DNA of 62,444 nucleotides, filler included, from Asterionella formosa (GCA_002256025.1; 11 parts of 11 records of this genome joined end to end with filler, not necessarily neighbours in it), one strand, 5' to 3'. Shown: positions 1 to 34,051, counted from the first letter of the whole stretch. A program made the numbers and translations. The notes: generated by a model from the sequence alone, not told the origin.

Positions 1-480
1 CTGCAAAGGACTTTTTATACATGGGAGGACCCCTTCAATTTCTTCTTTTCCTTTCTACAACTGCGATCGTTGCTACAGCATTGCCTTGGTGGCTCGCATG
101 GTTTGTGACGTCGGCTATGTTTATTGTAGCCTGTGCTATTCGTCTGTCAAATGGTGCCATCAAATCTTTTTTCTTCAAGGAAAATATTGAAAAAGATACC
201 CCTTAGTGAGGAGGCAAAGAGGAACCCATTGACAACTTAGGGTCACTTTAGTGATCACTACAACAAGGAGCATCATTTAGCAATTTGTTTTTATGTGTTT
301 TAACATTAATCATTTGGTTTAAGCCGTTGAGAAGCACATTAGCAGCTATGATCATACTACCACTTAATTAGTTTTGGTATCCATGATTGTTCAGGGTTTG
401 TCTAAATTGGCTTCACAGAGTAATTCATTACTGTGTTACCAATTGAATCACCTGCTGCTACTAGCAATGCTCTCCTCAAT

Positions 481-748
481 TGTTGGAGAAAATATTTTTG
501 GAAAGAAAATCCCTGTATGAATTACCTACTACATATTGAATCGAATGAATCAAGAAAGAATATGGTACCAGAGAATTCGAAAACAATCTACGCCAACAGT
601 TAAAAACCCATAATTCTATTAAAACTCTTAGGAAAGATTACAATCAATTACGGATACATCGTTGTTCATATCTACAGCCTATTTGGTCCCTGACGTGTCC
701 TTACAGGATACAAGAAAGCATAGAGTGCTTCGGGACGCAATTTCAACA
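481..748 (+). repeat. Predicted 5' LTR (268 bp)
   Basis: Starts TGTTG and ends CAACA (inverted termini), about 130 bp upstream of the gag ATG; the 3' LTR is not in the contig, so the boundary cannot be confirmed. Confidence 0.7.
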
Positions 749-763
749 GTTTTAATAGAATTA
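749..763 (+). promoter_or_regulatory. PBS position, complementary to the element's own LTR (611-625) rather than tRNA-like
   Basis: GTTTTAATAGAATTA directly follows the LTR-terminal CA, has no TGG start, and is the exact reverse complement of TAATTCTATTAAAAC at 611-625. Confidence 0.65.
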
Positions 764-881
764 GCCGGCCAGGAAGAGCCGTGATACCACAATCAGCAAC
801 AGGTGGACCATTGAGAGTCCGGAGACAAGATCTGAGGGTACCAGACCATCCAGAGTCTGAAGAAGTCGCACAAGGCGCATC

Positions 882-3800
882 ATGAGTGGCAAAGGAAAGT
901 TCACCAAGAAGGCTCAAGCCAAGGGCAAGTTTCAAGCCAAGGGAGGAAGCAAAATTGCTTCTCACTCCATCAAGAAGTCAGTCAATGACTATAACTACTA
1001 CCTCGGATCAGCAAAGCAGGCATCTGACTATGAGACTACTACTGAGTATCTCATCAACTACATCAAGAAAGTGTTCGATTATGGCAGCGACATTGGAATC
1101 GTGCTCAAGTCATTAGAACCAATCAACACAGCGGTATGGAAGCCAAGAATGCAAGTGAGCATTGCAACAACAGAAGAAGATTGCGCTGCAGAGAATCGAC
1201 AATATGAGATTGAGTTCAAGGCCGATTATGACACCTACAGTAAAAGGGTACAAGCCTGCGACTAAATTTTCAAGAAAATCGATATTCTATGTCGATCATT
1301 TTAGATGCGATGAGAACGCTTTTATTTACAAAGCAAAAGGAAGGAGAAAGTCTACAAAACTACACCAAAAGATTTCGTGTGGCACGAGATGTGCTCAAGT
1401 CACACATGGGAGGACCCATTATCCTCACCAAGTTTGTTGAAGCCATGGACGGATAAAACGAGACCAACTTCAAGCTACGAGATAAATTTCGTGAACAAGC
1501 TTTCAGTCAATTTATGGCATATTTATATCTCGATAATGCTGATCTAGCCAAATACGGATCAATTATGACAGGGCTGAACACTCAACAATCACTTGGCGAC
1601 AATCAATACCCGAAGACCATTACTGACTCAAATAATGTTCTAAGCAACCATTGGTTTGACATAACAAATAAATCCAACTACAAGAAACCATGAGATAATG
1701 ATAAAGAGAGGAAACAAAAGGATGCAGGGAAGGAAGATGAAGATGTGAACTTATCGTTTGCACAGTTAGAAGGAAAATGTTACTGCTGCGGAAAAGCAGG
1801 TCACAAATCTCCTTTGTGCCGAGACAAGAACAAACCCAAAGAGGAATGGGCTATCAACAGGGCCCAAAGCCATGCACAGGCACAGGCTTCTACATCAGAC
1901 ACAAGTACAGTTAACTCTGTTAATTCCAACAACCTGCCATCATCACAAGCTTCACAACAAGCAAATGTCAATCAATTTGGATGGGCGGGAGCTCATATGA
2001 AGCTACAATTTTACCAAGCATCTGAGATGCGTGACTGGATACTATTGGATAATCAATCAAGTGTCACAGTCTTTTGCAATCCAAAAATGGTTGAAAACAT
2101 TCAAATGTCAACCAATGGAAGCATGCACCTGGCCACAAATGGTGGATCCATGGTCACTAAAATGAAGGCTGATCTTCCACAATGGGGAGAAGTATGGTTT
2201 AATGAAAAGGCAATCACAAACATCTTCAGTTATGCCGAAATGGCAGATAGGTACAGAATTACCTATGACTTTGAGAAAGGAGATGCATTCATTGTTCATT
2301 TGCCTGACAAGACAGTTCGATTTGAAAGAATTGGGATGAACTTATATGTTTTCAAGCCAACTACAAGAATTAGAGCGGAGAATGCTCAAATGTTAAATAC
2401 ACTTGAAGAAAACAAAACATATTACACTGAATGTCAATTTCAGAGAGCTAAGCGAGCTCGTGATCTATTTCATGCCTTGGGTACACCATCAATTAATGAT
2501 TTCAAGGCAATAATTTGTATGAATACGATCAACAATAATCCAGTGACTACCGATGATATCAAAATTGCAGAGAAAATTTTTGGACCTGACATCAGAACAC
2601 TAAAAGGCAAGGCAACTCGTCGCAAGCCGCTGCCAGTCGTGAACGACTACATTGAGATTCCTAAGGAGCTCATCCAAGCTCAACGCGAAGTGATTCTTTG
2701 CATGGATGGAATGAAAGTGAATGGACAATCATTTCTCACAACAATTTCTCGAAACATTATGTATAGGACAGCGCAATGGGTCAAGAATCAGACAGCTGAA
2801 GTCTATCGAGATGCTTTGATTCAAGTATTTCGTGTTTATAATACCGGAGGATTTAAAATTACAACAATCCACTGTGACAACGAGTTTCGACCTTTGATGG
2901 AACAAATTTCCAATGAATTTCAAGTCACTATGAACTACGCAAACCCACAAGAACATGTTCCTGAAGTGGAGCGAAATAATCGAGTGATTAAAGAACGCGT
3001 GCACGCAGCTTATCATCGATTACCTTTCAAACATTTGCCACGACTGATGATTAAGATTCTAGTGACAGAATCTGCAAAGAAACTGAATTTCTTTCCGGCA
3101 AAGAACGGGATATCCCCGTATTACAGTCTTCGTATGATTCTACATCAACGAAACCTGGACTATGCTCGACATTGCCAGTATACATTTGGCACTTATGTCC
3201 AAGCAAATGAAGAACCTGTGTTTTCAAACACAAATGCACCACGCAGCCTAGATTGCATTTATCTACGCTGCAATGACAATGTGCAAGGGGGTCATGAATT
3301 ATTACACCTACCTACAAATTCATTGATCACTAGACAAACAGTTACTCCTCTACCATTTACCCCAGCAATCATGAATCAAGTACACAACCTTGCTGTGCAG
3401 GAAAATATGCCAGATGGTCTCAAGATATCAAATCGAACGGGACAACTATTTTATGATAGTGCTTGGATTGCAGGAGTGGATTATGATAATGAAGCATTTG
3501 AAGATGCACAAGATGGAGATTATGAAGATCAAGACGATAGTGAAAACGAAAGCAATGATGAAATTCTCAGAGAAGAAGACTATGATGAAATGACTCCAGA
3601 TGAAATATACGAAGCAGAACAGCTTGAATTAAACAACAATACTCAAGAGGATGACCCTGAACCTGACAAGGGCAACAATGAGAATAATATTGAAATGAAT
3701 GCAGATGAAATCCAAGATGAGGATGAAGAACCAGCAAATGAAACTGAAAATGAAGAGACAATGTTAGAAGTCAATCCAAGCACTGAGGATGACACAGACC

Positions 3801-5597
3801 CAAATGTTAGAACTACAAGGTCTGGAAGAGTCTCAAGACCACCATCAAAACTAACTATGGTCCAAAATCATTTGCATACCCAAGCACACTATCAAGAAGA
3901 ATACACGACTGATAATGCGAAAGTGATCGCAAAGACAATGTGTTATATGAATGAGATGTGTATCGATAAAGAAGCATTTCACTTTGTTCAGTCATACAGC
4001 TTAAAGAAAGGCCTCAAGAAATTTGGCCAGAAAGGAAGAGACGCTGCTTATAAGGAAATGAAACAACTACATGATACAGTTGTGTTTGAACCGATTAGGA
4101 TTGAAGACCTACCTGATATAGACAAGGGTTGTGCAATGGAAAGTCTAATTTTTTTGGTTGAAAAAAGAGACAAAAGCATTAAAGGCAGAGCATGTGCCAA
4201 TGGCAGTTCGCAGCGTGAATACATGGAAAGAGATGAAGCAGCCAGTCCAACTACCATGACTGAATCTTTTATGATAACAGCAACAATTGATGCGAAGCAA
4301 AATCGCGATGTTATGACTGCAGATATACCCAATGCATTTGAGCAAGTGGATATCGATGAGAAAGAAAAAGGGGAACAAATCATTATGAAGATTAGAGTTT
4401 TACTTGTCAATATGTTGACAGAACTCAGCCCCGAGACTTATGAAAAACATGTTGTTTATGAAGGAAACGACAAGGTCCTATATGTTAGGATGATCAAGGC
4501 ATTATATGGCATGTTACAGTCATCATTATTATATTACAAGAAATTTCGGAAGGATATTGAGTCAATTGGATTCAAGGTAAACCCATATGATCCATGTGTT
4601 GCAAATCGCATTGTTAATGGCAAACAGCACACAGTTACTTGGCACGTAGACGATTTGAAATCAAGTCACGTGGACAGGAAAGTGAATGATCAAATTTTGG
4701 AATGGCTCAAAAAGAAATACGCTTCTGACGAAATTGGTGAAGTCAAGGTCATGCGTGGAAAGAAGCATGATTATTTGGCTATGACGCTAGATTACTCTAT
4801 TCCAGGAGTGTTGAGGGTGGACATGACCAAATATGTGAAGTCAATGATTAATGATTTTCCGGATAAACTTGAAGGTGTCGGAAAATTTCCATGGACAGAT
4901 AAACTGTTCACAGTTGATACGAAATCAAAGAAGCTTGAACATGAAAAAGCAAAAATATTTCATACTTTTGTTATGAAAGGAATGTTCCTATGTAAGCGAG
5001 GAAGACAGGACATTCAACCGGGAATTGCATTTCTGGCGACCCGAACTACCGAACCAAATGAAGGTGATTGGGTAAAATTAGTCAAGATCATGAATTTCTT
5101 GAAAGCAACTCAGAACGAGGTTGCATTTATGAGTGCTGATGACACTCAGAGCATTAAATGGTACGTTGATGCGGCGTTTGCAGTGCACAAAGATTTTAAA
5201 AGTCACACAGGAGCTACAATGTCACTTGGAAACGGAATTATCTGTTCTATGTCTACGAAACAGAAAGTGAACACTAGAAGTTCGACTGAAGCAGAATTGG
5301 TTGGTGTCGATGACATCATATCAAAGGTGTTCTGGACGAAAATTTTTTATTGAAGCACAAGGACACAAGGTGACTACGAATGTCATTTACCGTGACAACA
5401 CTAGCGCAATGAAGCTAGAAGCAAATGGAAAAGCAAGTTCAGGAAAACGCACGCGACATTTCAACATCAAACATTTTTATATTACTGATCTTATTGAAAG
5501 AAAGGAAGTACAAATCAAGTACTGTCCATCGGATGCAATGTTAGCAGACTACATGACAAAACCACTGGTTGGAACGAAATTTATTCATTTTCGTCAG
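882..5597 (+). pseudogene. Disrupted gag-pol polyprotein
   Basis: Gag is broken near 1255-1265 (apparent deletion or frameshift), with in-frame stops near 1454 and 1690; 1202-aa open pol frame at 1745-5353; frameshift near 5340 in RNase H. Confidence 0.9.
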
Positions 5598-5697
5598 NNN
5601 NNNNNNNNNNNNNNNNNNNNNNNNNNNNNNNNNNNNNNNNNTTAATTAATTAANNNNNNNNNNNNNNNNNNNNNNNNNNNNNNNNNNNNNNNNNNNN
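5598..5697. other. Artificial contig linker N44-TTAATTAATTAA-N44 (also at 11294, 16986, 22676, 28366, 34052, 39736, 45421, 51098, 56775)
   Basis: Identical 100-nt spacer with stops in all six frames; flanking genes are cut off and unrelated. Confidence 0.98.
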
Positions 5698-5832
5698 TAT
5701 ATGTGTTTAGAAAATCAAAGGCCTGTCCTCATCGGTTTACATTTCAGGAGCATTTAGTTGATTTCAAAACCGTTCAACGGACCATTTAACGGATTTAGCG
5801 AATATTGCATTTCTTCTTTTTGACGCTTGTTC
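5698..5832 (+). repeat. Left arm of a 135-bp inverted repeat bounding contig 2
   Basis: Reverse complement of 11159-11293, one mismatch by eye. Confidence 0.95.
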
Positions 5833-6197
5833 CTCCTGTACACAGCTTATTTACAAGTTGGTTTTCGGCAGGTTGCCCCTCACCGGTAAATATATCATTT
5901 ATCCGCAAAACTTGCCGACTGGCTGGCTGTTCATAGAAACAATCAAACCATTTACAGTGCCTGGTACCAGGGTACCTGGTACCTGGTACCGGTACACAAA
6001 ATGTAACAGGCATCGTCACATGAGTGATCAAAAATACCTACACCGTCCACGTAAACCGTATGGTTTTACATTGCATGTGCGTAAATAATACCGGTAAACA
6101 AAAGTGTCTCTGATATATTATTTAAATAAAAACAAAAAGATAATATCGATCACATTTTATTAGCTACTCCTCTGGGGTTGTCATCTAACACTGGGAG

Positions 6198-6395
6198 CAC
6201 TGCCTTTAACAGGAAACGAAAGTACCCTGTATTGGCAACTGTTGGTACGTTTTCAACCGGTTTTCGTCCTCAAAATCCAGTCATACCTTGTATTTAGCAT
6301 TGCAATGTTTTCCAATACAAGGTACCGGTCATTTGATTTGTTTCAATACAAGGTGATGTACCATTCCAATACAAGGTTCACCTTGTAACCTTGTG
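6198..6395. repeat. Cluster of CCAATACAAGG-like motifs in both orientations, resembling TE subterminal repeats after a CACTG
   Basis: ccctgtattgg, ccttgtattt, ccaatacaagg, tcaatacaagg, ccaatacaagg within about 200 bp; no matching opposite end found. Confidence 0.4.
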
Positions 6396-7128
6396 TGCAG
6401 AGTGCAGGGTAGTTGAAATCTTGAATCAGGTTCACTTTGCCATTGTTTTGCCCCCAACTTTCCACTAGTAAGAAATGGAGGAAATGATGTATTTATATTT
6501 TTTAATGTCTGATGTGATGGTGCATGTTGCCTTTTCTGGAAATAGCCATCATCACAAACAACCTTGAAAGCCCAATTCATTAAATGGTGATCAAAATATG
6601 ATGGTGACAAAAAATTCGTTGAGAAAAAACATGAGCTCCAACTCTATGGGATTCATTGCTTGCTGATGCTTCTCTAATGGGAATTCACAAATTGTTTGGT
6701 AGAGGAGAATGTTTCAATTGATCTAACAAAAATCCTTCCATGCTCATCATTTTCAAAATACTGTTTACTTTTTTCCTGAAATCAATTCAAGCAAAGTGTA
6801 CCGTCTTCTTGCTCCTCCTCATAGAGGCAATATCACTATCACTACAATCCGGGAAATTATAATTTTCTTTGGGGAAACAAGATACATTATAGGATAATGG
6901 TTGCTGAATGTAATCAGCTCCAGTTCTGCTCGTGAAATAGAGTTCAGAAGGTGTTGTGGTACAAGATTCTGACAATGTAATTGATGTCGGAAATATCTGG
7001 TGTTCCTGTGAACAAACATAACACCAACCAAATGGTAGGAAAGTGCTAGTATTTGAGCAAATTATGTGATGCAGTCTGGATGGTTTCCGATTTTTCCTCA
7101 CTTTGTAGCCGCATAGTGGACACCAGTT

Positions 7129-9960
7129 CATCTGCAAATAAAAACTATCATGAATAAAGGATCAAGGGTATCATACACTAAGTGGCACAGGATTTTTACA
7201 TATATGATAGTTTTTGGATCAAAAATATGATCAATGTATCATATAATTATGATCATACAGTAAACTTTTACCAAGCTTGAAGTATGATGATACTATCATA
7301 GTTATAATACCATTGCATCATATAATTAGTTGAACAGAGTCCTATGATGTGTATACTTTTGTCATGCATCTATCTTAGCATGGTCGTAATTCTCATCGAT
7401 ATCACTGTCTAAAATAGGATGAAATTAATCGAAATTTAGAACTATGTTTAAGAATGGTTCTATGTTTCTATATCTTGAGTGGCTACAGAATCTTCTACAA
7501 TGCTCTCATCGCAATGATTGGTGCTTCAGCTGCTTTCACTTCCAGCTTCCCCCCAATCCAATTCTGAAGGTTGTTGTAGTACTGGTTGCCTTGCCGTTGT
7601 TCCCATGCTTTGTTCCATTTACTCCTGATGGATCTGAGTTTGCATTCACGCATTTTCTTATTACTATTGAATCGGTTTCGTTGTTCCAATCAGCCATAGT
7701 AACAAAGAGAAGCAATTCATGATTGTTAGCTGTTCATGTTTTGCTTACACAACAACATGCATTTCGCTTCTATCTTCACTTACCACAAATTGAGGAAGTA
7801 ACTGATGCATATTCTGTAAAAGAATGTGTCAGTTGAAGATTGAATAAGAAAGTATCGATCAATAAATGGGCTCCAATGCTGCTGTTGTTTGTAACTTACA
7901 AAAACTGTTTGTCTACCATTATCCTGAAAGAAGCAACACATATGTGTCAGTTTTTCTAAGATTCGTGGATTGATCCAAAGATGATAGCACTTACCGATTT
8001 CTTTTGTCCGCATTGATGGTTGGCCACCAAATCGAAAGAGAGCTATTGAATCACTGAAAGGGGACGAGTAATTCCGTATTTGTAATCCCAACAATTGATC
8101 ATCCTGGCAATTGCTCTTGACATGCCGTGATACTATGCACAGCTTGTTGATTCCGCCCTTCTCCATCATATCCACTCCTTCTTAGCCGCATGGTGGCCTG
8201 TATCATCGTGTTGTCTTGTAAATTCAGTTTTTCGCATCATGTGTTGCTTGAGATCCTTCATTTCAGGAAGTGTATGCATGACAAGGAACATGAAAGGCAT
8301 TTGCTCTTGACTTACCATCAATTGATCCCGCCCTTCTTCGTAGTCAGCACTCTTTCTAAGCCGGAAGTATCATTGTGTTGTATTTTCACTTTCGTTTTCC
8401 GCGCCATCATGTGTGATGATCCTTCATTTCAGGAGCAAAGTGTATGCATGACAAGGAACATGAAAACATGTGTTCAAATGTTTCAGCCATGAAAACATCT
8501 ATAGAAAGATTTGTAAGTTTAAATGTAAATATAGTTGAATATTTGCATTGTTTTAAACACGCTCAGCATTATACGGCACATCCTGTGTAAACTAATATCA
8601 ATTTTGATTATACATAATTCAAATATATACAATGCATGATGAGTTCATAGTTTTCCATGACCTGTTGAATTTCTTCAATTTGTTTTGTGTCAATTCTTGT
8701 ACCTACAAAGTCAGTGGCTGATTAAATTAAGCCCCTTAATAAAGGGAAGTTATCACCAATTTTTCAAATGGTCGAAATCATACATTTATGTATATAGACA
8801 CATTGACTATATACATTCGAAAAATTCATATGGCCTTCCAGTAGTACTGTATAGTACTTGCTGGGTATTACTACTATCATGGGAGTACCACAACAATGCA
8901 GCGGAAAACTGAATATGCTCATGTGTTTAGGATCATTTGATCATATTTCTAAGATCAATTAATCCTGATTCTTGAAAATAAATTTTTGATCTTTCATTTT
9001 CTTATCAACGACACCATTTATCATATGATCAATATGTTATGATCAAAGGTATAGGATAAACGAATCTTTATCATATGATCAATATGTTATGATCAAAGGT
9101 ATAGACTGGCTGGTGGTCGATAGGCCAAAGTGTCTCGCTTTTCATGAACATCGACTACAAAGTACTAGTGCTTTTGTCGAGGTTTGTGTCTAAATCCAAC
9201 TGCTGCCATCCATTGAAATATTCCAGATACATCAAAGAATAGCTACGCTCCTGTCTTCAAAGGTAAGGAACTAGTACGATGACAAAGAAAATCTAATGAG
9301 ACATGAAAATTACAAAACCAGAATCACTCTGTTACTATAAATAGACGGCACAGTCTAATGCTTCTTTGTGCATATCGCCTGCTATGCTGCGTTTCGATTC
9401 TAGATGTATTACGTTCTTGTTAGAGAGACAATGCTGTTCTACAATGGATGTTGTTTAGCTATAATTGAGGTTGTAACACTGATTGATGCTCTGGTGACAG
9501 ACCGGAAATATTCGTCTTGTGTGATGAGCCATTTCGTTTTCATTGGATTTCTTTTCAAGCTCTTAACAGATTGCATACAAACATACTGTGCACTGTAGAT
9601 GATGACGATTCATCGAAGACATATGATGACTTGAACGACAAATGAAGATTTTATCACAAACACTTGTTCCTCTTGACATGGCTGCTTTGTCGTTGTTGCA
9701 AGAATCAGTGTGAGGACTGGAGAGGATGATGAACCAAACCACATTACTTTAACTGGTACATTATCCTACCAAGAAATTTAAATAAAGGAACCTAAAAGAA
9801 ACAATGCATATAATAATTGAATTTCCATAGTCAAAAGGGTTACTATTTAAATTATGAGGGCATTTATCAAAATTATTAGATGACATAACGAAAAATTATG
9901 ATCAAATGATCATAATCTTATGATGCATAATAGGAATATGATGGTTTTCATTTGCAGACA
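7129..9960 (+). mobile_element. Non-autonomous TIR DNA transposon, copy 1 (2.8 kb, both ends present)
   Basis: 23-nt TIRs CATCTGCAAATAAAAACTATCAT and TGTCTGCAAATGAAAACCATCAT (revcomp); TT on both flanks; TGATCATA-rich subtermini; homologous segments at 13766-13930, 18083-19872 and 56911-58018. Confidence 0.85.
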
Positions 9961-11158
9961 TTATAGATCCATTGTGTAGCACTTGACAACATGCATCTAC
10001 GCACAAATACATCAAAGTTATCCTGCCTTCAGATTATCTATGTCTTAATAGACATGAATAGTAAAACAACTTCGTTTCTATATATTATTGATGTCAATTA
10101 AGTTCATGCATATTGGTACCTGCTATACATGACAATATTGTGAAAGCAATTCCCACTCCAGCTATTGTCTTGCCATTTGTGCTTACTTTGCTTTATTCTC
10201 TCCAAACTCAAATCAATCTCTTTTGCCAGACAACTGAGCAATTTTTAGGCTCTAAGTAATTTTTATTTAAGGGCAATATGGGGCACATCGAATTTTTCGG
10301 CATTAAAATTGCTGATTTTAGCATGACAGCCAGAATAATGGTAAAATACATAGAAAGGGTACAGCAAGCATAAAACACATGAGAATGATTGTAACATGCA
10401 ACATCAATGAAAATTGAACATGATGTTTGGAGCAACCAAAGTATGAAATGCGATGTAATAAGTAGCATCAAATAAGAAATAGAAGAAATTGTTTTGTGTT
10501 AGAAATGAAGTGAAAAATAGGAGTTTCAATGGAGATGTATGCATTGTGACATTGTAGTATTACTTAAAAAGGCAATTGACTCTCCATCACCACACAATCA
10601 AAAACCGAAAAATAAAGAAAAATGCAAATACCAATTTAGACCTGCATTGTTATGTAGCATAGATGATCTGGTTGCTGCAACCAGCATGCACATCACTGTA
10701 GTAGCCTGACACCAGTAGCAGTCTTTCTGTCACAGCCAGTCATTCCTCCCAACAAACAAGCAACCCTGATCATTCCATTCCATTCTGAGCAAGCGTGATT
10801 GCCAGGCTGTTCCAGCAATATCAATTCCCTCTAGCTAAGTATTGTTATGTAGCTTGTGATATGAACTCATAGTATAAAGGTAGCAAAACCTGTTAGTACA
10901 AGAAAAGCATTGCTTGGCAGCAATATTGACAACATGATCAACAACTGTACAGATCAACAACAATACATCTTCAAAGAGTTGGCATTGATACATTGATCAG
11001 CCCTTGTGTAGATAGTTACGATGGAATCAAAACAATGCAGAATAACAAAAAATGAAGGAAGCGATCAAAATGGACCATGGAAGCAATCAAATCGGAAATT
11101 TGACAATTATATCAATGATCACATTCAGTGTTTCACTGTTGTACTCACCGAACCACTC

Positions 11159-11293
11159 GAACAAGTGTCAAAAAGAAGAAATGCAATATTCGCTAAATCC
11201 GTTAAATGGTCCGTTGAACGGTTTTGAAATCAACTAAATGCTCCTGAAATGTAAACCGATGAGGACAGGCCTTTGATTTTCTAAACACATATA
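11159..11293 (-). repeat. Right arm of the 135-bp inverted repeat bounding contig 2
   Basis: Reverse complement of 5698-5832. Confidence 0.95.
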
Positions 11294-11393
11294 NNNNNNN
11301 NNNNNNNNNNNNNNNNNNNNNNNNNNNNNNNNNNNNNTTAATTAATTAANNNNNNNNNNNNNNNNNNNNNNNNNNNNNNNNNNNNNNNNNNNN

Positions 11394-12366
11394 ATGCACA
11401 TGCCACAAAATGTTGATTTGATGTAATCTAAACGTGCCTTGTTGATACATTCAATGGTTTGATTCATTGGAAGTAGTGCATCAGAACCATTCCATATGAA
11501 ATCGGCAAGCTCTGGGTCACTCTCCACTTCTTTGCCTAACTCCGGTTTCACTGTGTATAGCCGAGTTAGGCAGGTCAACATTGGGCAAACCAATCCTGTT
11601 TGTGATTGGAAATGCCTTTCATACTACTTGGACCAGATAGCAGGGCGGGATGTTTGATTCTCTTTTGGGACCAGAAAAAAGCACATTAGATTGATATTCT
11701 GTTTTACAGTACCTGCAATTCGCGAACTATAACATCAGACTTACATGTTCACAGCAAAACTTCTTGGTCTTGAAAATAAAACTCACAACCTTTTTGACAA
11801 TTGATGGATCGGTTCAATTTTAGCTAAGCGGCCGGGAACGACGATCTGATAAGGCTGCTGAAATTGAAGATTTTTGTTAACCTCGTATGGACGAGTTTTG
11901 AACCGAATTACGATTAGTGATTGAGTTCATTGACCAATTGATAATATCCTTTGGGAAGTGAAAAATGTTATTCCCTCAGTTTGTCATGTACTTGTTGGTC
12001 CGTGCGATTAGAAAATTTATGATATGGTACCATGTTGTCCATCTGCATCCGGGAGTTATTAATGGTATCATCGACAGGAGCCATTTTTCTTGTATCAACA
12101 AGCAACTGAAAAGGAAACGTCATCATCGCTTTTCAGTGTCAATTAGCTACGGAAGCCTTTGTACTAGTAGCTGATGGTGTCCCCATCGAAGATGGGGTAG
12201 TACCTCCACTACCTCCCTGTTGCTGATTGGGTTCCTTTGGATAGTTGCCTATTCGCTTTTTATTTGTTAACTCATTTTGGTACTTGCTTCTTTGTTCCAT
12301 ACCGGCAGTATTTGCCACATGTCGCTTGTTTGTTCCATGAACCTCTTTATGGCTTCTTGAAGACAT
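11394..12366 (-). pseudogene. Degraded, possibly intron-containing coding remnant of unknown family
   Basis: Short coding-like ORF pieces on the minus strand with GTAAGT...AG intron-like segments near 11650-11745; lies inward of a TIR-family end. Confidence 0.3.
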
Positions 12367-12568
12367 TGTACTACTAGATAACTGTTGTCGTTCTCTTTCT
12401 TAAAGTTCGATGATCTTAAATTCAGGTGTTGCAAGCCACAATGAAATGAATCATCAGCCACTACATATAATATTTTACGCTGTCTAGATATGATACCATA
12501 AAATCAACAGCGCTATTAACATTATCATATACAAAATCAGAACCGAGTTTGAGTAATAGCATATCTTG

Positions 12569-13004
12569 TTTTCAATTATACGATTATACAATCCTAAAAA
12601 TGTGATGATTTACTGTTCCGCTGCAGTAGCAGCAGTCATGAACATATGGTGTTCTGTTGCTTGCTTACTACTCCGACTACTCTCTTTCAATTTTACGATT
12701 GTACAATCCTAAAACTATGATGATTTACTGTACCGCTGCAGTAGCAGCAGTCATGAACAAATGGTGTTCTGTTGCTCGCTTACTACTCCGACTATTATTT
12801 TTCAATATTATGATCATACGATCCTAAAACTATGATGATTTTATGTCCCGCTGCAGTAGCAGCAGTCATGAACATATGGTGCTCTGTTGCTTGCTTACTA
12901 CTCCGACTACTCTCTTTTCAATTTTATGATCATACGATCCCAAAACTATGATGATTTACTGTCCCACTGCAGTAGTAACAGTCATAAACATATGGTGTTC
13001 TGTT
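12569..13004. repeat. Tandem array, about 3.8 copies of a 115-116 bp unit
   Basis: TTCAA anchor at 12571, 12686, 12801 and 12917; core ccgctgcagtagcagcagtcatgaacatatggtgttctgttgc. Confidence 0.95.
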
Positions 13005-13093
13005 TTATGATGTAGTACCGGTACACATGAAAAACTCCCGCTGGAGTATGTTTAAGGGTAATGAAGCCATCAATGTGGTACTTGGATGAAAAT

Positions 13094-13771
13094 CGTTGGG
13101 AGGCAGGACAACAACAAATTGTAAACTAAACGCACATTTCCTTTTTTCTCAGTTGATTCGCTCAACAGCTCGTTTCTCTTGTTGGGGAGCACCAATGTAA
13201 AACAAAACAAAGAAAAATTGGTAAGTGCTCTTGTCATTGGACTTATTCACTTCTGATGGAACATCCCTGATGGACACGCCACTTTACCTTCTCTCAAAGT
13301 TAAGCTAACGAAAATGAATCGGTAAGTTTTATTCGGCAACATTGGAAACCTGAAACTTTCTTATTCAAGAGTAATTTCCTGACAATTTACTATTACAGAC
13401 TTATGCATCACTTGCTTTGATTTGGCTGTGGTAAGTGAAGCAAGCAAGAGGATACGATGGAATGGCGTAATGTTGTGTCAATGTAACATGAGTAGCTAAC
13501 AAATCATTCCTTCTCATTGTTACTGTAACTGCATAGGACAATAAAACCAATCAAACAACGGAATAGTTGGCGAGTTTAGAGTGACACTAACAGCAGGAAA
13601 AGAGACACGACATTAGGAGGCACTACCTCACATATGAGTCAGAATAGAGGAAGGAAAGTGCGAGACAGGAACAATATACATTGAGCCGAGTAGAGAGAGA
13701 AACGTTGGGTCGCTGGCATGTAGAATAATAGATAGCATATACATTGTGTGATGATAATGTTCTTATTATCA
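13094..13771. mobile_element. Possible solo LTR or other insertion inside a TIR-family end
   Basis: (C/T)GTTGG...TATCA termini; interrupts homology to the TIR-family subterminus; no TSD seen. Confidence 0.3.
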
Positions 13772-13930
13772 TTGTACTTCAAGGTCGGTAAAATATTAAT
13801 AAATCATCATAGTTATAGGATACTTTGATCATAATTTTGATCCAAAAATTATCATAGATACGAAAATCCTGTGCCACTTATTGTACGATACCCTTGATCC
13901 TATATGCATGATACTTTTTATTTGCAGACG
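13766..13930 (-). mobile_element. Terminal segment of the CGTCTGC-TIR family (diverged relative)
   Basis: Aligns to the revcomp of 7129-7295 and ends TTTTTATTTGCAGACG. Confidence 0.85.
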
Positions 13931-15263
13931 TACTTCTCCCCAAGAATTAAATCTGTCAGATGGATATGCTGGCTCTCTAGTTGACCGTGTTGTTGAATAC
14001 AGGAATCGTGAAGATGCTCGAAATGGAATTGACCTTGATGCCCAAGCCCGTCAACGCAAGGAAACTGCCCAAGCCCATCTCGACTCCCAGAAGAAAAGAA
14101 TCTCTGCTGGCCTGTTGGCATCTGCTGGCATTCATGCTCTTGGACCAAATGTGCTTGCATCTGCACTGGTGAGGCAGAGAAAGGCAGAGGAACTGGTTAC
14201 TGAGCGTCAAAACAAAAGTCAGCATGAATTTATGAAGCTAAGGAACAAATTTATGGCTCTACGCGCAGCCAACAAGCCTGAGCGAGCATATGCTGTCAGT
14301 TCCTGAAATTAAGATCCTTGTGCGATGGTTTCGACGCAACGGAGATTTCATGGTACCACAAACAAGACAACCCTACTTATCTGCTTGGGAGAGACCTCAC
14401 TCCGAGGAGACCAGCAGGTGCCAGCAGAAGAGATCAAAACTGCTGTGTTTCTTGCTGCGAGTCCCATCCCCCCTATTCTCCCCCCCCCCCTTGGCCTGCA
14501 GTTGACAATTGTGCTGACACATAATTGGGAAATTGACATTGCAGTCGCACTGCCTTGCATGCTTCGGGCATGAAAGAATGTAAAGGGTGGCTGGCTGAGA
14601 GGAGGAACATGAAGGACAGCGACGAAACAAGGTGGCGGAAGCGAAAGCAGAGCAAGGTTGAGGCGAAGGTGGAGAAGCAAACAAGCAATCAAACAAAAAA
14701 TTCTCGCTTGGCTGACATCTGTCATAGTATTAATACCAAACCAGTAGCCTGATGTAAGCAGAACACTAAATAGTGACGAACGTAAATAATCAATCCCTAT
14801 ATAAATCTATATCAAACCATCATCAAAACGAATGAAAGTAAGATTATTGACACAAAGAATGAAATAATATTTGAATTAAAAGGCAAACGCATTATTTTTT
14901 AAGGTTTAAAAAATGAAAACAATGAATAATAAATGGGTAGATGATGCAACGGACAAATAATATTGTGGCAGGAAAAAGCTTTAGAGTAAACAATAGGGTA
15001 ATCGAAACCAGAATTTGAATATAAAATTGTCTTCAGGTACGAAGTAAAAAATATGTATTGATAGTCATACAAAACGACCATAATTATCAACTTTAAAAAC
15101 TTCATATCTCTTGAATTATGACGCTTCATTACTAATTAAACAGACCTATTGAAAGCGGAGAGCCTGTTCTACATTTAGCTACGTACTTGATTTGTTTTCA
15201 CCATGAAATTTGACTTAAATAGTTTGAGTCGAAACATGGGGTAAACTATATATGACTCTCAGT
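13931..15263 (+). mobile_element. 3' remnant of a DNA transposon: frameshifted transposase-like C-terminus plus an AT-rich terminal region
   Basis: ELNLSDGYAGSLVDRVV...RISAGLL...LSVPEIKILVRWFRRNGD resembles C-termini of diatom DDE-type transposases (recalled, not searched); cut at its 5' side by the TIR end. Confidence 0.4.
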
Positions 15264-17089
15264 TTTTAGGTGGTACCAGGTACCTGGTACCTGATGGATG
15301 CGCATACATACATGTCAGTACGAAATGGTGTGTTGTAGAATCTTGTCGGCATGAACTTTTCTTTGTCCTTGTCATTAAATATTGCGAAACCATATGATCG
15401 GTCTACATTTTGCCACGGCCCACCTTTGTCATTGCTAGCTACGGATGTGCTCATTTGTATGAAGCGACGATCGATTATCGCAGCAATCAACCGAAGTCCA
15501 TGCTGTCTCGTCAATCTCTGAAATTCTAGGAAGTATCCAGCAAAATTGCAGGTTGTAGTAGTATCTTATGATAGTTGCATGTTGGTGGTAATGCGACCAC
15601 AATTCTAACAGCTCGTTGCATGTGTGGATGTGAATTTAAAATAGAATGTTGATGAGTAGATATCATGACAGCCATAAAAATGTGCGTTTGATTATGTAGT
15701 CATCTGATTTATTGTCATACTTCTTCGTTTTCGTTGCCAATTCAAGCCCAGCAATTGATTGCCAACTATCTTCGATTTACCACCCAGTTCTTATTGCTAG
15801 AAAAACCTTCGAATGTTTTCATCTTTTCATTACCGACTTCAAGTTTTTAAACTCTGGCGCATTATTGATTGGTGAATTGAATCAAGCAGCCAGCTTTCTG
15901 GATTCTCTATCACCATGTCATGCAAATTTGTCACTGAGGGTCCACCATTTGTTGCAAGCTGATAAAGCAGGTCGGGTAGTTAAAAATTCACACAAATAGC
16001 ATGATTCTTTGATGGATTTAAAAGATGATTGAATTCGCTCCATAAGCCTATCATTGAGGCTTCATGAGCGATACATTCAACCGAAGAATCAGGCCATTAT
16101 TGAATGTTGTCAACAAATTTCAACAGAACAAGTAGAACTGACACTACTAATAGCTAGCTATTCATTTCATCTACATTCTATCATTTGGTTGAGGTTGAAA
16201 TGAAGTGATAGTGAGTCGTAATTTACATCTTGTGTGTATACTATAGTTACAATATTTTTTGTCATCTGCTCCGCCCTGCAACATGCGTATTATCAGTACT
16301 TTCTGTATTAGGTATCGATGGGTGTGGTCCGCCCGAGGTAGAAGTCGTTCTCATGTGTACATTTTGTACCGACCATTTTTTTGGTGTCCTCGGTTTGACC
16401 TAAAATTCAGGGTGTGAATTAGAAGTCTTTTTCTTTGTACAGATATTCCGTAGAACAGGGGATTACCAAACATTGGACATTTTTTGATCGTCAGACATTA
16501 TGAAAAAAAAATTTCAACGATTTCTCCATATTCTAAAACATAAATAGCTCTATTCAAAGCAATGTTCATAAATATATTCCCACCAAATGTCGACTACTAT
16601 ATGGCTTTGATTTTGATGACTAACGAGAAAAATCCAATTGGACTACCCAAAAGGTAGGTGAAAAAAGGATTCCTTCCATATTTCCACTTTTTGGAACTCG
16701 TTTTCTTCTCCATTAATCTTGTCTGTTGCGTTGTTGCGGGTTTGAGCATGTGAATTTCTCGGTAGGTCTTACATAATTTCACATTCAGAAGTTTCTGGTT
16801 TAAGATGTTTCTGGATCATTCATGCGAGACAACAGAGCCCATCATTGTTGATATGGTTATTCAGTCTTTCAAGTAGCTATTGTGGAAATATACCAAGTGG
16901 CTAACTCCTAGGGTTAATTTTCCCATTGTGAATATGAGGCATTATATTATGTGTTGAACATTTATGATACCGGGGAATAATGGATNNNNNNNNNNNNNNN
17001 NNNNNNNNNNNNNNNNNNNNNNNNNNNNNTTAATTAATTAANNNNNNNNNNNNNNNNNNNNNNNNNNNNNNNNNNNNNNNNNNNNTCCG

Positions 17090-18082: not shown

Positions 18083-19872
18083 GATTCGTTTATCCTATAC
18101 CTTTGATCATAACATATTGATCATATGATGAACGGTGTTGTTGATGAGAAAATGAACGATCAACATTTATTTTCAAGAATCAGGATCAATTGATCTTAGA
18201 AATATGATCAAATGATCCTAAACACATGAGGATATTCAGTTTTCCGCTGCACTTTTGTGGTATTTCCATGATGGAAGTAATTACCAGCAATTATACAGTA
18301 CTACCAGTAGGCCATATGAATTTTGGTCAATATGTCTATATACATCAATGTATGATTTTGACCATTCGAAAAATTGGTGATGACTCCCGTTTATTAAGAG
18401 GCTTTCTTAAATCAGCCACTGACTTGTAGGTAGTACAAGAATTGACACAAAACAAATTGAAAAAATTCAACAGATCGTGGAAAAATATAAACTCATCATG
18501 CATTGTATAAATTTGAATTATGATGACTCCTGTTTATTAAGGGGCTTAATTAAATCAGCCAGCCACTGACTTGTAGGTACAAGAATTGACACAAACAAGA
18601 AATTTAAAAAATTCAACAGGTCATGGTAACTCATCATGCATTGTATATATTTTAATTATGTATAATCAAAATTGATATTAGTATACACTGGATGTGCCAT
18701 ATAATGAACGCTTTTAAAACTATGCATTTGTTCAACTATATATACATTTAAACTTCTTACAAATCTTTTTATATATGTATTCATGGCTGAAAAATTTGAA
18801 ATCATGTTTTCATGTGGTTCCTTGTCTTGCATTCACTGCTTTGCTCCTGAAATGAAGCATTATCACACATGATAATGCGGAAAACGAAAGTGATAATACA
18901 GCACAATGATGTTTGTGGTTTAGAAGAGAAGGGCGGAATCAATTGATGGTAAGTCAAGAGCAAATGCCTTTCATGTTCTTTGTCATGCTGCATCCACTTC
19001 CTCAAATGAAGGATCTCAAGCAACACATGATGCGAAAAACTGAAGTGACAGTACAGCACGATGATATACCATGCGGCTAAGAAGGAGTGAATATGATGGA
19101 GAAGGGCGGAATCAACAGGCTGTGCATAGCATCACGGTTTGTCAAGAGCAAATGCCAGGATGATCAATTGCTGGGATTTCAAATACGGAATGACTCGTCC
19201 CCTTTCAGTGATTCAATAGCAGCTCCTTTTCGATTTGGTGGCTGGCCAACCATCAATGTGGACTAAAGAAATCGGTAAGTGCTATTAGCCATCTTTGGAT
19301 CAATCTACAACTGTTAGAAAAACTGACACATATGTGTTGCTTCTCTCAGGATAATGGTAGACAAACAGTATTTGTAAGTTACAAACAACAGCAGCATTGT
19401 AGCCCATTTATTGATCTATACTTTCTCATTCAATCTTCAGCTGACACATTGTTCTTTTATAGAAATATGCATCAGTTACTTCCTCAAATTGTGATAAGTT
19501 CAATAGAAGCGAAATGCATGTTGTTGTGTAAGCAAAACATGAACAGCTAACAATGAATTGCTTCTCTTTGTTAGTATGACTGATTGGAACAATGAAATGG
19601 ATTCAATAGTGCGTAAATGCAAACTCAGAACCCTCAGGAGTATATGGAACAAAGCAGGTGAACAACGGCAAGTTAACCAGTATAACAACCTTCAGAATTG
19701 GGTTGGGGGGGTATGTGGAAGTGAAAGCGGCACCAACAATCATTGCGATGAGAGCATTGTAGAACATTCTGTAGCCACTAAAGTTATAGAAACATAAAAC
19801 CATTCTTAAATATAGTTCTAAATTTCGATCAATTTCATCCTATTTTAGACAGTGATATCGATGAGAATTTCG
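18083..19872 (-). mobile_element. CGTCTGC-TIR family copy 2 (internal part, reverse orientation)
   Basis: Colinear with the revcomp of about 7380-9066; carries a private tandem duplication of about 140 bp at 18379-18660. Confidence 0.9.
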
Positions 19873-20418
19873 ATCAGGGTGAAGGTTGTGATTTTGGTGA
19901 AAATTCATATTATATATCTTGACTGGCTACTGAAAATGTTTCCATGTCAAAGGTCTTTGCTAAAACTCATTTTGGAAAAATTATTACAGATTGGATGGAG
20001 ACAAACCACTCATCACCTGTACCAGGTAAAGTCTTCCCTGTTTACATCTTAGAAGGCATGACATCAATTCATCAGGTGTGTGATATTGCTTTGAATAAAC
20101 CTCTCAAGGCTGCAATCAAGAAGCTTTTTTCTGATTTCAGGCAAAAAGCCATAGCTGATTACACTGCCAGAGAGCTGGTTGGTTGTGCTCTCACAGTACC
20201 GAGGGAAGATCTGGTTGGAATGATTGAGACTGCCTTGCTTTGATAAAATAAACCTAGGAAATAAGCCCAGGAGATGGATTGCAGCTGTATTTGCAACATG
20301 TGGGCAGGATCCTTGGTCAGTCAACTTGGACAGTTTTGAAAAACATCTTGTTTCCCTCAATGACAATGCAATATATTTGAACATGCAAAAATCGACAAGT
20401 CAATTGAAATTGACATAG
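19873..20418 (+). pseudogene. pogo/Tc5-like DDE_1 transposase C-terminal remnant
   Basis: VYILEGMTSIHQVCDIALNKPLKAAIK matches the DDE_1 pattern (P.G.TS..Q..D...NKP.K); frameshift near 20240. Confidence 0.7.
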
Positions 20419-30791: not shown

Positions 30792-31546
30792 TTTAATAAG
30801 TAACGATAACCTTTAGTCGGCATGTGAAATAGCACTTGTTCCCACAACTTGATTGTGAGAACATCTATCGCTTTTTTGGTTGTCCAGCTTTAGTCGGAGG
30901 TTGGAGGGAGTACCTAGTACTTGCCTCATGCTGTATCGACCTAATGCTGATGGTATTCAGCATCCTCACTTTTTAGCGATGGCTGAGCGTCTTTTGTGAT
31001 ACAATGGTACACATTCATTCCAAATATATGCTTTTTGGCGAAAAATTGCACGTCGTCTGTAACTTAATCTAAATACATACTAAGTCTCCTCTATACAATT
31101 GGTATGCCTCTTTTCTAAATAATACATATATGGATAACATATAAACATACATAATCACACTTTCATATTGTATATATTGAAATATACCTAAAATCTGTAG
31201 ATGGTCACTTTTGTTCGCCTGTTTTCTTCACCAAAACACGCAGATTTCCCAATNNNNNNNNNNNNNNNNNNNNNNNNNNNNNNNNNNNNNNNNNNNNNNN
31301 NNNNNNNNNNNNNNNNNNNNNNNNNNNNNNNNNNNNNNNNNNNNNNNNNNNNNNNNNNNNNNNNNNNNNNNNTCACCAAAACACGCAGATTTCCCAATAC
31401 ACGCATTTTCTTTCAGTTCAGGTTTTCTAAGAACCATTCATTGCGTCAATCAACTCAAAATACGGTCGTATCACCGGTCTCTCTTCATCTAATAAAGGTC
31501 AACAATATAGACGCCTTCAAAAATTGATGGAAATCCAGCAAAGACG

Positions 31547-32131: not shown

Positions 32132-34051
32132 TGTTAAATTGTCTAGCTTAATTAATTGAGAATATCACAGATGTCACTTTTAAGATCTCTAAAGATGAAA
32201 ACTTATTTTCACTTTACACTTTACAATATTGTGTTTATTAATTGTCTACCTGATCTTGTTCTTTCATGATTACTCAAGTAATCCCATGCAAAACATCTCA
32301 CACTTTTGATCATGTTAATATGATTTTGCTCGCTTTTACAATCTATGAGCATCTTAATCCATGTGACAATAAATGAGCATCTCAATTCATTGCAACATGA
32401 AATTGCATGACTTGGCTTCTAATCAACTCGATTCATAGGATTCCATATATTTTGTCACCTTCCCTGATCTCAAAACCAGCAATCCATGGTCTCATTCCTA
32501 CTAATATGACTTGCATGAGTTTCATGAAAGTTCTTAATGACATTCTTTGAGAGTAGGTCTGCAGGATTGTTCAAAGTATTCACATAATCAACTCTAATAT
32601 CCCTAGCCTTCACCTTTTCTCGAATGAAATGATATCTCACATCGATTTGCTTAGTTATTGAACCAACCTGCTGATTCTTTGATTAAAAAATTGTATTCAG
32701 CAATGATACTGGGCATTTTCACACATTGAACTTCATTGAATAGATTCATTATAAAAATAGTTTCCTTTGATCCATCTGATAGCGCCAAGTACTCTGCTTC
32801 AGGGCTGGAAACAATAACAATCTTTTGTCCTTTTGAAATCCAATTCACAAGCAATGCACCATCAACTGTGCCTAAATATGCACTTGTCGATTTCCTGGTA
32901 TCTGGATTGTCTCCAAATGAGCTATCTACCATGTCTTGGACTCATGATTCATGTGGTGGTCTCATTTTTAATTTTCTGTTTCTTTCATCAGTTGCAATGA
33001 ATCCTAACAAACGTTCAACAGCACTCCAATGGGCCTCTCCTGGATTCTCTAAATGTTGGGAAAGTTCCCAATATTCATTTGCGCATACTGGTCCAACTTT
33101 CTTCACAAAATATAACATTTCACCAACCGTAAAACAATATTCTTCATGGAGAGTGACTTTGTCTGGTAAATTTCTGGGAAAATTTCCAGGCAATGCTGGG
33201 GTTAATTCATCTCTTGGATACTTCCAAAAATATATTTAAAATCTTGGAACATAACATGCTCAACTCCAAATAACGTCCCACTTTATCCTATCCCCAATCG
33301 TACTACACTCCCAAATGATTCTTCACAGGGCCCAGCTCCGCCTTGAATGTAAAATGTTTCTTGATTTCACTTTTGAACCATTTAAAAATCGATTGGCTTT
33401 CAAACAATTGCACAATCATCGACATGTGTAGCAAATTTTAGTGGGATTAGTGCATTGTTTTCCTTTACAAAGAATAAACATGGATCAACCTTGCTTTGCT
33501 GAAATCCAACATTGGTTAGGTTTTTAACCACTTTCTTGAAGAATTGAAGCGCTACTTGAAATGTGCTATACATGGCCTTCTCCAACAATCTAAAGAATTT
33601 TCTTTTCATTGTTTCTTCTGTTTCGAAACCAAACTCTAAAGCCCCATCTGGCCCATTACAATAGATTTATGCTCGTCCATCTGTCCACCAAGAAAAGCAG
33701 CTTCGACATCAAAGAGCGATCTCACACCCATCTTTGTCCCCAGACATATCCCATTTGTGTAGCGATAGGGCAAATATCATATGCATTGAAGAATCTGTTT
33801 CAACTGGAGCGACTGAATCAGTGAAATCTAGTCCAGGGATCGGAACATTGCCTTTCACTACAATATGTCCTTTGTATCTAACACTTTTATCCTGCTCGCA
33901 CTTCTTGAATAACCAGCATGTGCCTAATGGCCTTCTTACATTGAGATTGTCAGGAAGAACCGCCCATTTTCCAAACATTTGGCTTGTAGAAGTTATTGAT
34001 TTCCTTTTTTATTAGCAACACTCTATTGCTTGCTCTTATCGCCTTTCATAG
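32132..34051 (-). mobile_element. Decayed Ty1/Copia 3' half (RT, RNase H, PPT, 3' LTR)
   Basis: LGTCWLFKK..YKGHIVVKG..PGLDFTDSVAPV, KAMY, SKVDPCLF, HVDD, VDSSFGDNPDTRKSTS, SSPEAEY; many stops; purine run AGGGAAGG followed by a TG...CA segment at 32457-32132. Confidence 0.85.

Follow-up and report, generated by a model that had tools for sequence, protein, structure and literature searches.

A Ty1/Copia-type LTR retrotransposon at the beginning of a 62,444-nucleotide stretch of Asterionella formosa DNA (GCA_002256025.1; the whole stretch is termed the window) carries, directly behind its 5' LTR, a primer-binding site (PBS) that is the exact reverse complement of a segment of the same LTR, and this self-complementary arrangement recurs with other letters in related diatom-type families. 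The window element belongs to a high-copy family of Ty1/Copia-type LTR retrotransposons from a diatom-like freshwater alga, and the copy seen here is defective. The element probably shares with a broad clade of related diatom Copia families a tRNA-independent, Tf1-type self-priming of reverse transcription. The anatomy of the element, the LTR boundary, the significance of the match in comparison with chance and, across eight families, a conserved layout with compensatory changes were observed directly; from these features we infer a transcription start at the LTR segment, a cleavage by RNase H and the use of the segment (the LTR arm) as the primer. The first-pass annotation had claimed that the element's own RNA, in place of a tRNA, acts as the primer, a claim which is supported by the LTR boundary, by the co-varying relatives and by the diversity of PBS sequences that lack TGG.

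The window is a chain of contigs and not a single locus, its pieces being about 2.7-5.7 kb in length (most of them about 5.6 kb). Ten N44-TTAATTAATTAA-N44 linkers join the pieces, and an additional gap of 119 N is located at 31254-31372. The other pieces harbor ordinary eukaryotic genes, including those of ORC2, an ABC1 kinase, a cation ATPase, synaptobrevin, a CRAL/TRIO protein and a CLC channel. The piece at 1-5597 consists of a unique flank of 479 nt followed by the retrotransposon, whose features are collected in Table 1 together with those of the related families. The defects of the window copy are plain: gag undergoes a frame change near 1260 and contains two in-frame stops ahead of the CCHC knuckle, the ORF at 1745-5353 (1202 codons), which encodes the CCHC knuckle and the Copia-type polymerase, is ended by another frame change, and the RNase H end lies in a different frame and is cut at 5597. 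The 3' LTR of this copy is absent from the window because the assembly linker cuts the contig at 5597, and no second LTR or element copy was detected when 400-900 was compared by blastn with the 62,444-base window.

Table 1. Features of the window copy, and LTR, arm and PBS positions in the eight families (a slash in the arm-start context marks the start of the arm; shuffles are LTR shuffles)
Element	Feature	Position	Strand	Remarks
Window copy	5' LTR	480..748	+	269 bp, TGTTGG...TTCAACA; limits from depth step, flank contig end, loose ends and metagenome copies
Window copy	Putative U3	480..610	+	131 nt; if transcription starts at the arm
Window copy	Initiator-like CCCATAA	606..612	+	CAY+1A, +1 = T611; from sequence context, function putative
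Window copy	LTR arm, proposed self-primer (first RNA bases)	611..626	+	611-625 pairs with PBS; T626 pairs with A748
Window copy	Rest of putative R-U5 (loop between arms)	627..748	+	121-122 nt
Window copy	Primer-binding site	749..763	+	Exact reverse complement of 611-625, directly after LTR
Window copy	5' untranslated leader	764..881	+	
Window copy	gag region, broken	882..1744	+	ORF 882-1265; three-frame translation
Window copy	gag CCHC - protease - integrase (putative) - RT - RNase H	1745..5597	+	Cut at 5597
Window copy	Assembly linker N44-TTAATTAATTAA-N44	5598..5697	.	Takes away 3' end and 3' LTR of the copy
Window family	LTR; arm; PBS	480-748; 611-625; 749-763		15 nt (+1 bp with terminal A); shuffles 0/5000; context AACCCA/T
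L008	LTR; arm; PBS	ends 264; 129-144; 265-280		16 nt (+1); shuffles 0/5000; context CATCTC/A
L009	LTR; arm; PBS	4700-4963; 4799-4814; 4964-4979		16 nt; shuffles 0/5000; context GATCTC/A
L010	LTR; arm; PBS	4406-4535; 4451-4464; 4536-4549		14 nt; shuffles 0/5000; context CAATCA/C
L020	LTR pair; arm; PBS	8692-9184 and 14154-14646; 9034-9048; 9185-9199		LTRs 97.8% identical; 15 nt (+1); shuffles 0/5000; context GTTCTC/A
L092	LTR; arm; PBS	188-405; 337-350; 406-419		14 nt; shuffles 0/5000; context CTCTCA/C
L105	LTR; arm; PBS	102-464; 334-347; 465-478	reverse	Reverse-complement coordinates; 14 nt; shuffles 0/5000; context GGCTCA/C
L073	LTR; arm; PBS	26-373; 137-150; 374-387		13/14, one mismatch; shuffles 1/5000; context TGGTCA/C

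The Ty1/Copia assignment is based on the RVT_2 reverse transcriptase and on the TG...CA direct LTRs with a polypurine tract, as found in the window LTR and in the true LTR pair of L020. The pol ORF of the window has 597 homologues at E<=1e-20 among 3,470 candidates. All 120 of these homologues that were listed carry a precomputed RVT_2 domain (PF07727); most of the 120 are gag-pol proteins of 1,550-1,700 aa, many of them from contigs of 5-6 kb, and the named homologues among the matches listed belong to the diatoms Fragilaria crotonensis, Nitzschia inconspicua and Nitzschia sp. An intact protein of 1624 aa (P0001), which shares 94% identity with the window pol, gives a PF07727 match at 1142-1372 (E 2e-11). 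The CCHC knuckle lies on the N-terminal side of the pol ORF. In Ty1/Copia elements the integrase is encoded ahead of the RT (order gag-PR-IN-RT-RH). A domain search of three proteins gave no rve match and, upstream of the RT, a sub-threshold match to SH3_retrovirus (integrase C-terminal) at 814-867, with E of 0.039 and 0.025 in two of the three. The junction (C/A/G)AGGAGTG-TGTTGG, conserved at 11 sites in 10 loci, represents the polypurine tract before the 3' LTR. Most of the public runs in which the element occurs are metagenomes of fresh water or lakes; an 'algae metagenome' is also among them.

The limits of the LTR were checked on contigs of public runs over 1-1600 and on metagenome copies. 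At the 5' side, the DNA contig depth of run X1 rises about 400-fold, from 3,375 in the bin 379-432 to 1.47 million in the bin 487-540, the unique-flank contig of run X2 stops exactly at 480, and loose ends with differing sequence precede 479/480 in the public run contigs. At the 3' side, where the LTR reads ...AATTTCAACA up to 748, contigs exit the element right behind 748 into mutually unlike sequence (X19, n=6; X2, n=9; agreement 0.48). The metagenome copies L001 and L002 read from the pol 3' end through CAGCAGGAGTG into TGTTGGAG..., the sequence before the TGTTGGAG junction in both, after the pol 3' end, being CCAGCAGGAGTG. In a further copy (L005), an unrelated flank runs up to the same TGTTGG, from which L001, L002 and L005 align onward, and upstream of which they differ. 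Since the depth and loose-end contigs agree with the metagenome copies, the LTR of this high-copy family is placed at 480-748, and its end at 748, as claimed by the first-pass annotation, is borne out by the contig loose ends and the metagenome copies.

Behind this end comes GTTTTAATAGAATTA at 749-763, of which TAATTCTATTAAAAC at 611-625 is the exact reverse complement, a relationship that had been reported earlier and is read directly in the sequence. With T626:A748 included, the exact pairing run amounts to 16 bp (611-626/748-763), and a repeat search and a blastn comparison extend the pairing to 19 bp (611-629/745-763) with one mismatch. Even with up to two mismatches allowed, the 15-mer matches the 62,444-base window only at 611-625 (+) and at 749-763 (-), 0.33 matches being expected. 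The three bases TGG are not present after the LTR of the window copy, as had been stated earlier. The PBS is identical in all five copies of the family that cover 749-763. A chance inverted repeat in AT-rich sequence, which had been named as a case that would refute self-priming, might be favored by an LTR of only 35% G+C, and its probability is nevertheless negligible: none of 5000 mononucleotide shuffles of the window LTR yielded an anchored complement of at least 15 nt (maximum 11; expectation 3.9e-6), the corresponding shuffle counts were 0/5000 in each of seven families and 1/5000 in the eighth, and the expected number of anchored complements per family ranges from 5e-8 to 4e-6.

Relatives of the window element were collected from public contigs. 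A scan of metagenome contigs with a gag query gave seven loci, four of which belong to the window family, and an alignment of 28 polyproteins against prokaryote genome records led to 23 diatom-type Copia contigs that had been mis-binned in MAGs; when the same MAG records were searched again, L073, L092 and L105 were added, plus many fragments without a 5' end. Neither the pol protein nor the 28-polyprotein alignment found relatives in viral contigs. At each locus possessing a gag 5' end, the LTR end was located and the complement of the following bases was sought in the LTR. Five loci that contain the PBS or less and too little LTR upstream (L003, L018, L055, L056 and L108) were left out, as were L019 and L015, which come without upstream sequence, and L079 and L116, which belong to the L092 family and stop inside its long leader. 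L004 (64% gag identity) begins inside gag, without upstream sequence. L006 (39% gag identity) was unusable, with no LTR pair and no PPT motif found, and L007 was dropped as spurious, being a dense prokaryote-like contig.

Among the ten copies or families with a readable LTR end and enough LTR, seven displayed an exact complement, one a near-exact complement, one a doubtful result and one a negative result. The doubtful case (L107a), on a degenerate contig with many stop codons, has 12 exact nt that lie 2 nt off the decayed terminus, and the negative case (L107b), on the same contig, is complementary at 10/14 positions. The first-pass annotation had proposed that the complementarity between PBS and LTR be followed into relatives, and there it is perfect over 14-16 nt in seven of the eight families, the remaining one having a single mismatch (13/14). 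In all eight families the PBS complement starts at the first base after the LTR, the 3' end of which was verified by independent copies in the window family and L020 only, was set in L008, L010, L073, L092 and L105 by the conserved ...CAACA terminus mirroring TGTTG, and is ambiguous by up to about 6 nt in L009. The spacing of the parts is flexible: the stretch between the LTR start and the arm (the putative U3) spans 45-342 nt in the seven families whose LTR start lies in the contig, the LTR ends 69-237 nt from the start of the arm (131-165 nt in five families out of eight), and the loop between the arms is about 55-225 nt. In L010, PBS and gag ATG overlap.

None of the 11 PBS sequences available (those of the eight families and of L018, L055 and L056) starts with TGG, and their letters differ from family to family, which together argue against a host tRNA common to them all. 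Most Copia elements follow the conventional route, in which the 3' end of tRNA-Met or a tRNA half acts as the primer (PMC6317226). For the present families, priming by a host tRNA, by half of one or by some other host RNA, with an incidental match to the LTR, is highly improbable, since the PBS not only differs among the eight but co-varies with each family's own LTR; the window contains no tRNA gene, the region 400-950 has no Rfam match, and the window PBS has a G+C content of 20%.

The distribution of the self-complementary PBS was viewed on a FastTree phylogeny of the 413-aa RT-RH region, which comprises 127 sequences (116 of the 120 proteins and 11 loci; four with fewer than 380 aligned residues were dropped, and the placement of L006, resting on 95 aa, is to be ignored). 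Families with a PBS-LTR complement are found on both sides of the midpoint root. It is probable, with somewhat less confidence than for the families examined, that this whole, diverse clade of diatom Ty1/Copia elements replicates without any tRNA and that the first 14-16 nt of the element's own RNA serve as the primer. Hundreds of homologous polyproteins related to this clade are present in public data.

The sequences of the paired arms change in concert. Pairwise gag identity among the eight families is 19-64%, and the five families with pol are 41-95% identical to P0001 in the RT-RH region. When the families are placed in the register of the LTR end over 14 positions, 111 of the 112 cells are Watson-Crick pairs and none is G:U, and all 14 anchored positions vary, with two or three pair types each; the eight families are phylogenetically related and therefore do not represent fully independent cases. 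Formal counting of pairs was confined to the window family and L008, because a MAFFT alignment of five R-U5-PBS segments missed the register of the arms. The segments of these two families align gap-free in the arms, where 10 of the 16 pairs are unchanged, six are changed on both sides and none is changed on one side. Compensatory changes in relatives, which had likewise been put forward as a check on self-priming, are thus present as six double and no single changes in this comparison, the letters differing in each family. When the 3' partner was slid by 1-3 columns, pairing between these two rows fell from 100% to 29-45%, and the shuffle control gave 7/500, a control that is weak with two rows only. 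The 4-5 copies of the window family show no variation in the arms, an observation that adds nothing because most of the surrounding sequence (most of 655-810) is equally invariant; of the 40 variant sites with the best support (among 176), the arms contain none, with about one expected.

In the predicted minimum-energy folds, the arms are fully paired in all five families folded (z -2.8 to -4.1), including all 16 arm bases of the window copy. A fold that is both predicted in all five and conserved might be explained by a long-range stem of the leader that acts in packaging, dimerisation, translation control or presentation of the PBS, with another primer being used, and fungal GalEa Copia elements do carry a conserved hairpin of unknown role at the position of the PBS (PMC5445492). 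Such a purely structural stem is unlikely in view of its position: the right arm starts in every family exactly at the first base after the LTR, where the 3' end of a primer must sit, the left arm is located at an initiator-like motif, and no alternative PBS-like sequence is present after the LTR. The pairing itself leads in the same direction, as the lack of any G:U in 112 cells agrees better with copying from a primer template than with selection solely for an RNA stem, which is expected to tolerate some G:U. The absent G:U pairs would accordingly reflect a templated relationship, in which the PBS may be re-copied from the primer in each cycle.

The position of the left arm also bears on where the transcript begins. 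Mapped starts of the FCP genes of Phaeodactylum are surrounded by CAY+1A, and for diatoms an initiator-like consensus, TCAH+1W, has been proposed (Kadono et al. 2015, PMC4686930). TCAHW, which occurs at only 1-6 sites per LTR, puts +1 on the first or second base of the arm in seven of the eight families; the arm of the window family has CATA of the CAYA type, with +1 at T611 and CCATA instead of TCAHW. In 8/8 families the beginning of the arm falls at an initiator-like motif or 1 nt into it, and this indirect but consistent evidence suggests that the transcript begins with the LTR arm. RNA contigs cover 515-654 (X19) and 579-713 (X8), as expected from the U3-R end of full-length RNA. One RNA contig (X8 record 27) spans 630-754 and crosses the LTR/PBS junction, which hints that PBS-bearing RNA reaches at least to 630. 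The RNA depth shows no step at 611 in these assembled contigs, which cannot show RNA ends, and 757-810 is not covered by the RNA contigs of X19.

A start downstream of the arm, for example at 647-669, would leave the PBS to pair with the 3' U3 copy of the arm, thereby circularising the RNA or priming from the 3' region, and we know of no precedent for priming or circularisation through such a copy. The RNA contig depth rises at about 650-668, from 309 to 16,096 in X19 and from 1,132 to 2,433-5,960 in X8, and the two TCAHW sites of the window LTR have +1 at 647 and 669, near which a start downstream of the arm may lie in the window family. The excess of RNA ends at 748, where the contigs enter non-element sequence, and it is absent from 757 onward, hence from the PBS and gag bins; because it leaves the element at 748, it probably represents LTR-to-flank or host transcripts and not genomic RNA. 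Taken with the contig spanning 630-754 and with the placement of TCAHW exactly at the arm in the other seven families, this renders a downstream start with pairing to the 3' copy very unlikely.

Under the preferred self-priming reading, the RNA would begin within the LTR at the initiator-like CA/TCA motif (about T611 in the window copy), and its first 14-16 nt would fold back across the remainder of R-U5 to pair with the PBS that adjoins the LTR. On the model of Tf1, the RNase H of the element would cut after the paired stretch, that is, after 625 or 626 in the window copy, and the freed 3' OH would be extended by copying U5 from A748 backwards, which would give the minus-strand strong-stop DNA. 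Because the primer would later be copied back into the PBS, both arms would change jointly and retain perfect Watson-Crick pairing. All copies of the window family keep the mismatch C627/C747, which suggests that the primer of the window copy ends at 625 or 626, since a longer primer, once copied back, would be expected to erase this mismatch.

To our knowledge, self-priming has been experimentally established only for the Tf1/sushi (Gypsy) elements. In Tf1 and Tf2 of Schizosaccharomyces pombe, as in the window element, the PBS after the 5' LTR has its complement in the RNA of the element itself instead of in a tRNA, this complement is located at the start of the transcript (a putative start in the window element), and the fold-back sets the 3' end of the primer on the first base of the PBS, so that U5 is copied next. 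The window element is not a member of the Tf1/sushi clade, because its reverse transcriptase is of the Copia type (RVT_2), whereas the Tf1/sushi elements belong to Ty3/Gypsy, with a Gypsy-type RT, an integrase behind the RT and chromovirus affinity. The mechanism has been shown experimentally in the latter, whereas in the window element, of a diatom-type stramenopile host, the start site and the RNase H cut are putative. The Tf1 RNA's initial 11 bases pair with the PBS and are cut off between bases 11 and 12, and this duplex of 11 nt differs from the 14-16 nt of the diatom-type families (PMC7175516).

Within Ty1/Copia, the closest parallel is provided by the plant TAR elements, for 89% of which (among 203 elements) self-priming has been predicted (Neumann et al. 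2019, PMC6317226); Houba and Osr-1, which are included in TAR, are cited in the same work as the subject of an earlier self-priming proposal. The TAR elements likewise lack a tRNA-type PBS, and their self-priming was predicted in silico. They differ in being elements of green plants, the survey having been conducted without diatoms, and they were compared with the diatom clade by description only. The fungal GalEa elements are also Copia elements without a tRNA-type PBS, in which a pairing element occupies the PBS position and the pairing can extend to the LTR's last A, as it does in three of the eight families of the window clade (PMC5445492). In GalEa, however, pairing involves a local 9-bp palindrome and a nearby hairpin, and its authors found no complement in the LTR (PMC5445492), whereas the PBS of the window clade is not palindromic and has an exact LTR complement 55-223 nt upstream; the Conserved Hairpin Site of GalEa does not occur in the window-clade families.

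The CoDi groups are also Copia elements of diatoms (Maumus 2009, PMC2806351; Llorens 2009, PMC2774666). Term searches of the accessible text revealed no mention of a primer-binding site, tRNA, self-prim or priming in Maumus 2009 (PMC2806351), no 'self-prim' in Llorens 2009 (PMC2774666), and no PBS or tRNA terms in Filloramo 2021 (PMC8147415). A description of self-priming in diatoms was not found in titles and abstracts, subscription journals and Repbase reports being outside this coverage. The earlier suggestion that self-priming is undescribed for Ty1/Copia is out of date, as it has been predicted for plant TAR (Neumann 2019, PMC6317226). The mechanism is known, and what is new is the host group, the diatoms, and the Copia clade; less is novel than had been claimed, and the comparative support is strong.

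Within Copia, self-priming has so far rested on in-silico prediction in one plant lineage, and a second Copia clade in distant hosts (stramenopiles), with unusually clean compensatory change, points to a wider distribution of the mechanism. It is also relevant to the idea, discussed in PMC3601003, of self-priming in early LTR elements. For practical purposes, annotation pipelines that demand a tRNA-type PBS will mis-score diatom Copia elements, and the link between the initiator motif and the partner of the PBS offers a testable prediction of transcription start sites in diatom LTRs. If the self-priming reading is true, the start site of the promoter and the PBS would be mechanically coupled and would co-evolve, and, along with plant TAR and Tf1/sushi, self-priming would be a recurrent or ancestral property among LTR retroelements and not a curiosity of the Gypsy side.

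Between families, the junction at which the polypurine tract, (C/A/G)AGGAGTG, directly meets the LTR start, TGTTGG, was found to be near-invariant, the LTRs being otherwise unalignable; its positions in the related Copia loci (L numbers, from metagenome contigs and mis-binned MAG contigs) are listed in the table. LTR length could be as short as 130 bp, as in the L010 family, where the PBS (4536-4549) overlaps the gag start codon and only 5 nt separate the LTR end from the ATG.

Four of the related loci (L001 at 1-2652, L002, L009 and L010) displayed either the order pol 3' end, single LTR, PBS and gag, or overlapping contig ends, the overlap reaching 121 nt in L010 and 447 nt in L009. Such arrangements may reflect two LTRs collapsed in assembly, tandem elements or one-LTR circles. 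The sole true LTR pair found, that of L020, is flanked by GGCAT (8687-8691) versus TGTGC (14647-14651), with no matching target-site duplication, and is adjoined by an inverted gag fragment; these two features together suggest recombination or nested insertion.

The MAG-derived loci (L008-L030 and L031-L119) originated from records G001-G022, and 23 diatom-type Copia contigs were located within MAG records whose labels name bacteria or archaea. The presence of diatom-type Copia contigs in MAG records is eukaryotic contamination of the bins. Inspection by eye further revealed that L079 is a chimeric contig, because its bacterial biotin-carboxylase-like N-terminus runs into, and is fused with, a retrotransposon leader.

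The window itself is a chain of contigs, each of about 2.7-5.7 kb and the majority of about 5.6 kb, which are joined by ten identical linkers, N44-TTAATTAATTAA-N44, and interrupted by one extra gap; adjacent pieces are therefore without physical linkage. Several other repeats were observed along this chain. The second contig piece carries a 135-nt inverted repeat at both ends (99% complementary), which represents either a pair of terminal inverted repeats or the result of a fold-back during assembly, the underlying repeat call also spanning linkers. Another inverted repeat pair of about 625 nt (447 + 178 nt, 96% complementary) encloses about 2.4 kb, and the ORF beside it gave no match in a Pfam search. 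A further dispersed repeat family, whose copies lie in both orientations and share 82-97% identity, is spread over three or four contig pieces, and a unit of about 115 nt is repeated four times in a tandem array. Lastly, a weak RT-like tblastn match to Copia pol (33% over 64 aa) on the minus strand is possibly a relic of another retroelement.

Positions of junctions, joins and repeats (own contig coordinates for L loci)
Feature	Sequence	Position
Polypurine tract/LTR junction	L001	1700
	L002	904
	L008	5346
	L009	4694
	L010	4400
	L012	4614; 8325
	L017	1733
	L019	5814
	L020	14148
	L022	1852
Linkers	window	5598-5697; 11294-11393; eight further sites
Extra gap (119 N)	window	31254-31372
135-nt inverted repeat	window	5698-5832; 11159-11293
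~625-nt inverted repeat pair (40965-44605)	window	40965-41589; 43984-44605
ORF beside this pair	window	43890-45251
Dispersed repeat family	window	7125-9972; 18083-19876; 56971-57954; 13751-13934
Tandem array	window	12569-13040
RT-like match (-)	window	33415-33597

Within the window element, RNA contig depth at 649-756, over the final ~100 nt of the LTR, amounted to 2-50 times that of the remainder of the element in X19 and X8, two RNA runs from separate studies, and the high-depth contigs exit the element at 748 into dissimilar sequences. The diatom initiator-like motif TCAHW occurs in this LTR with +1, the inferred transcription start base, at 647 and 669. The RNA excess may derive from LTR-driven read-out, or from an LTR piece residing within an expressed host gene.
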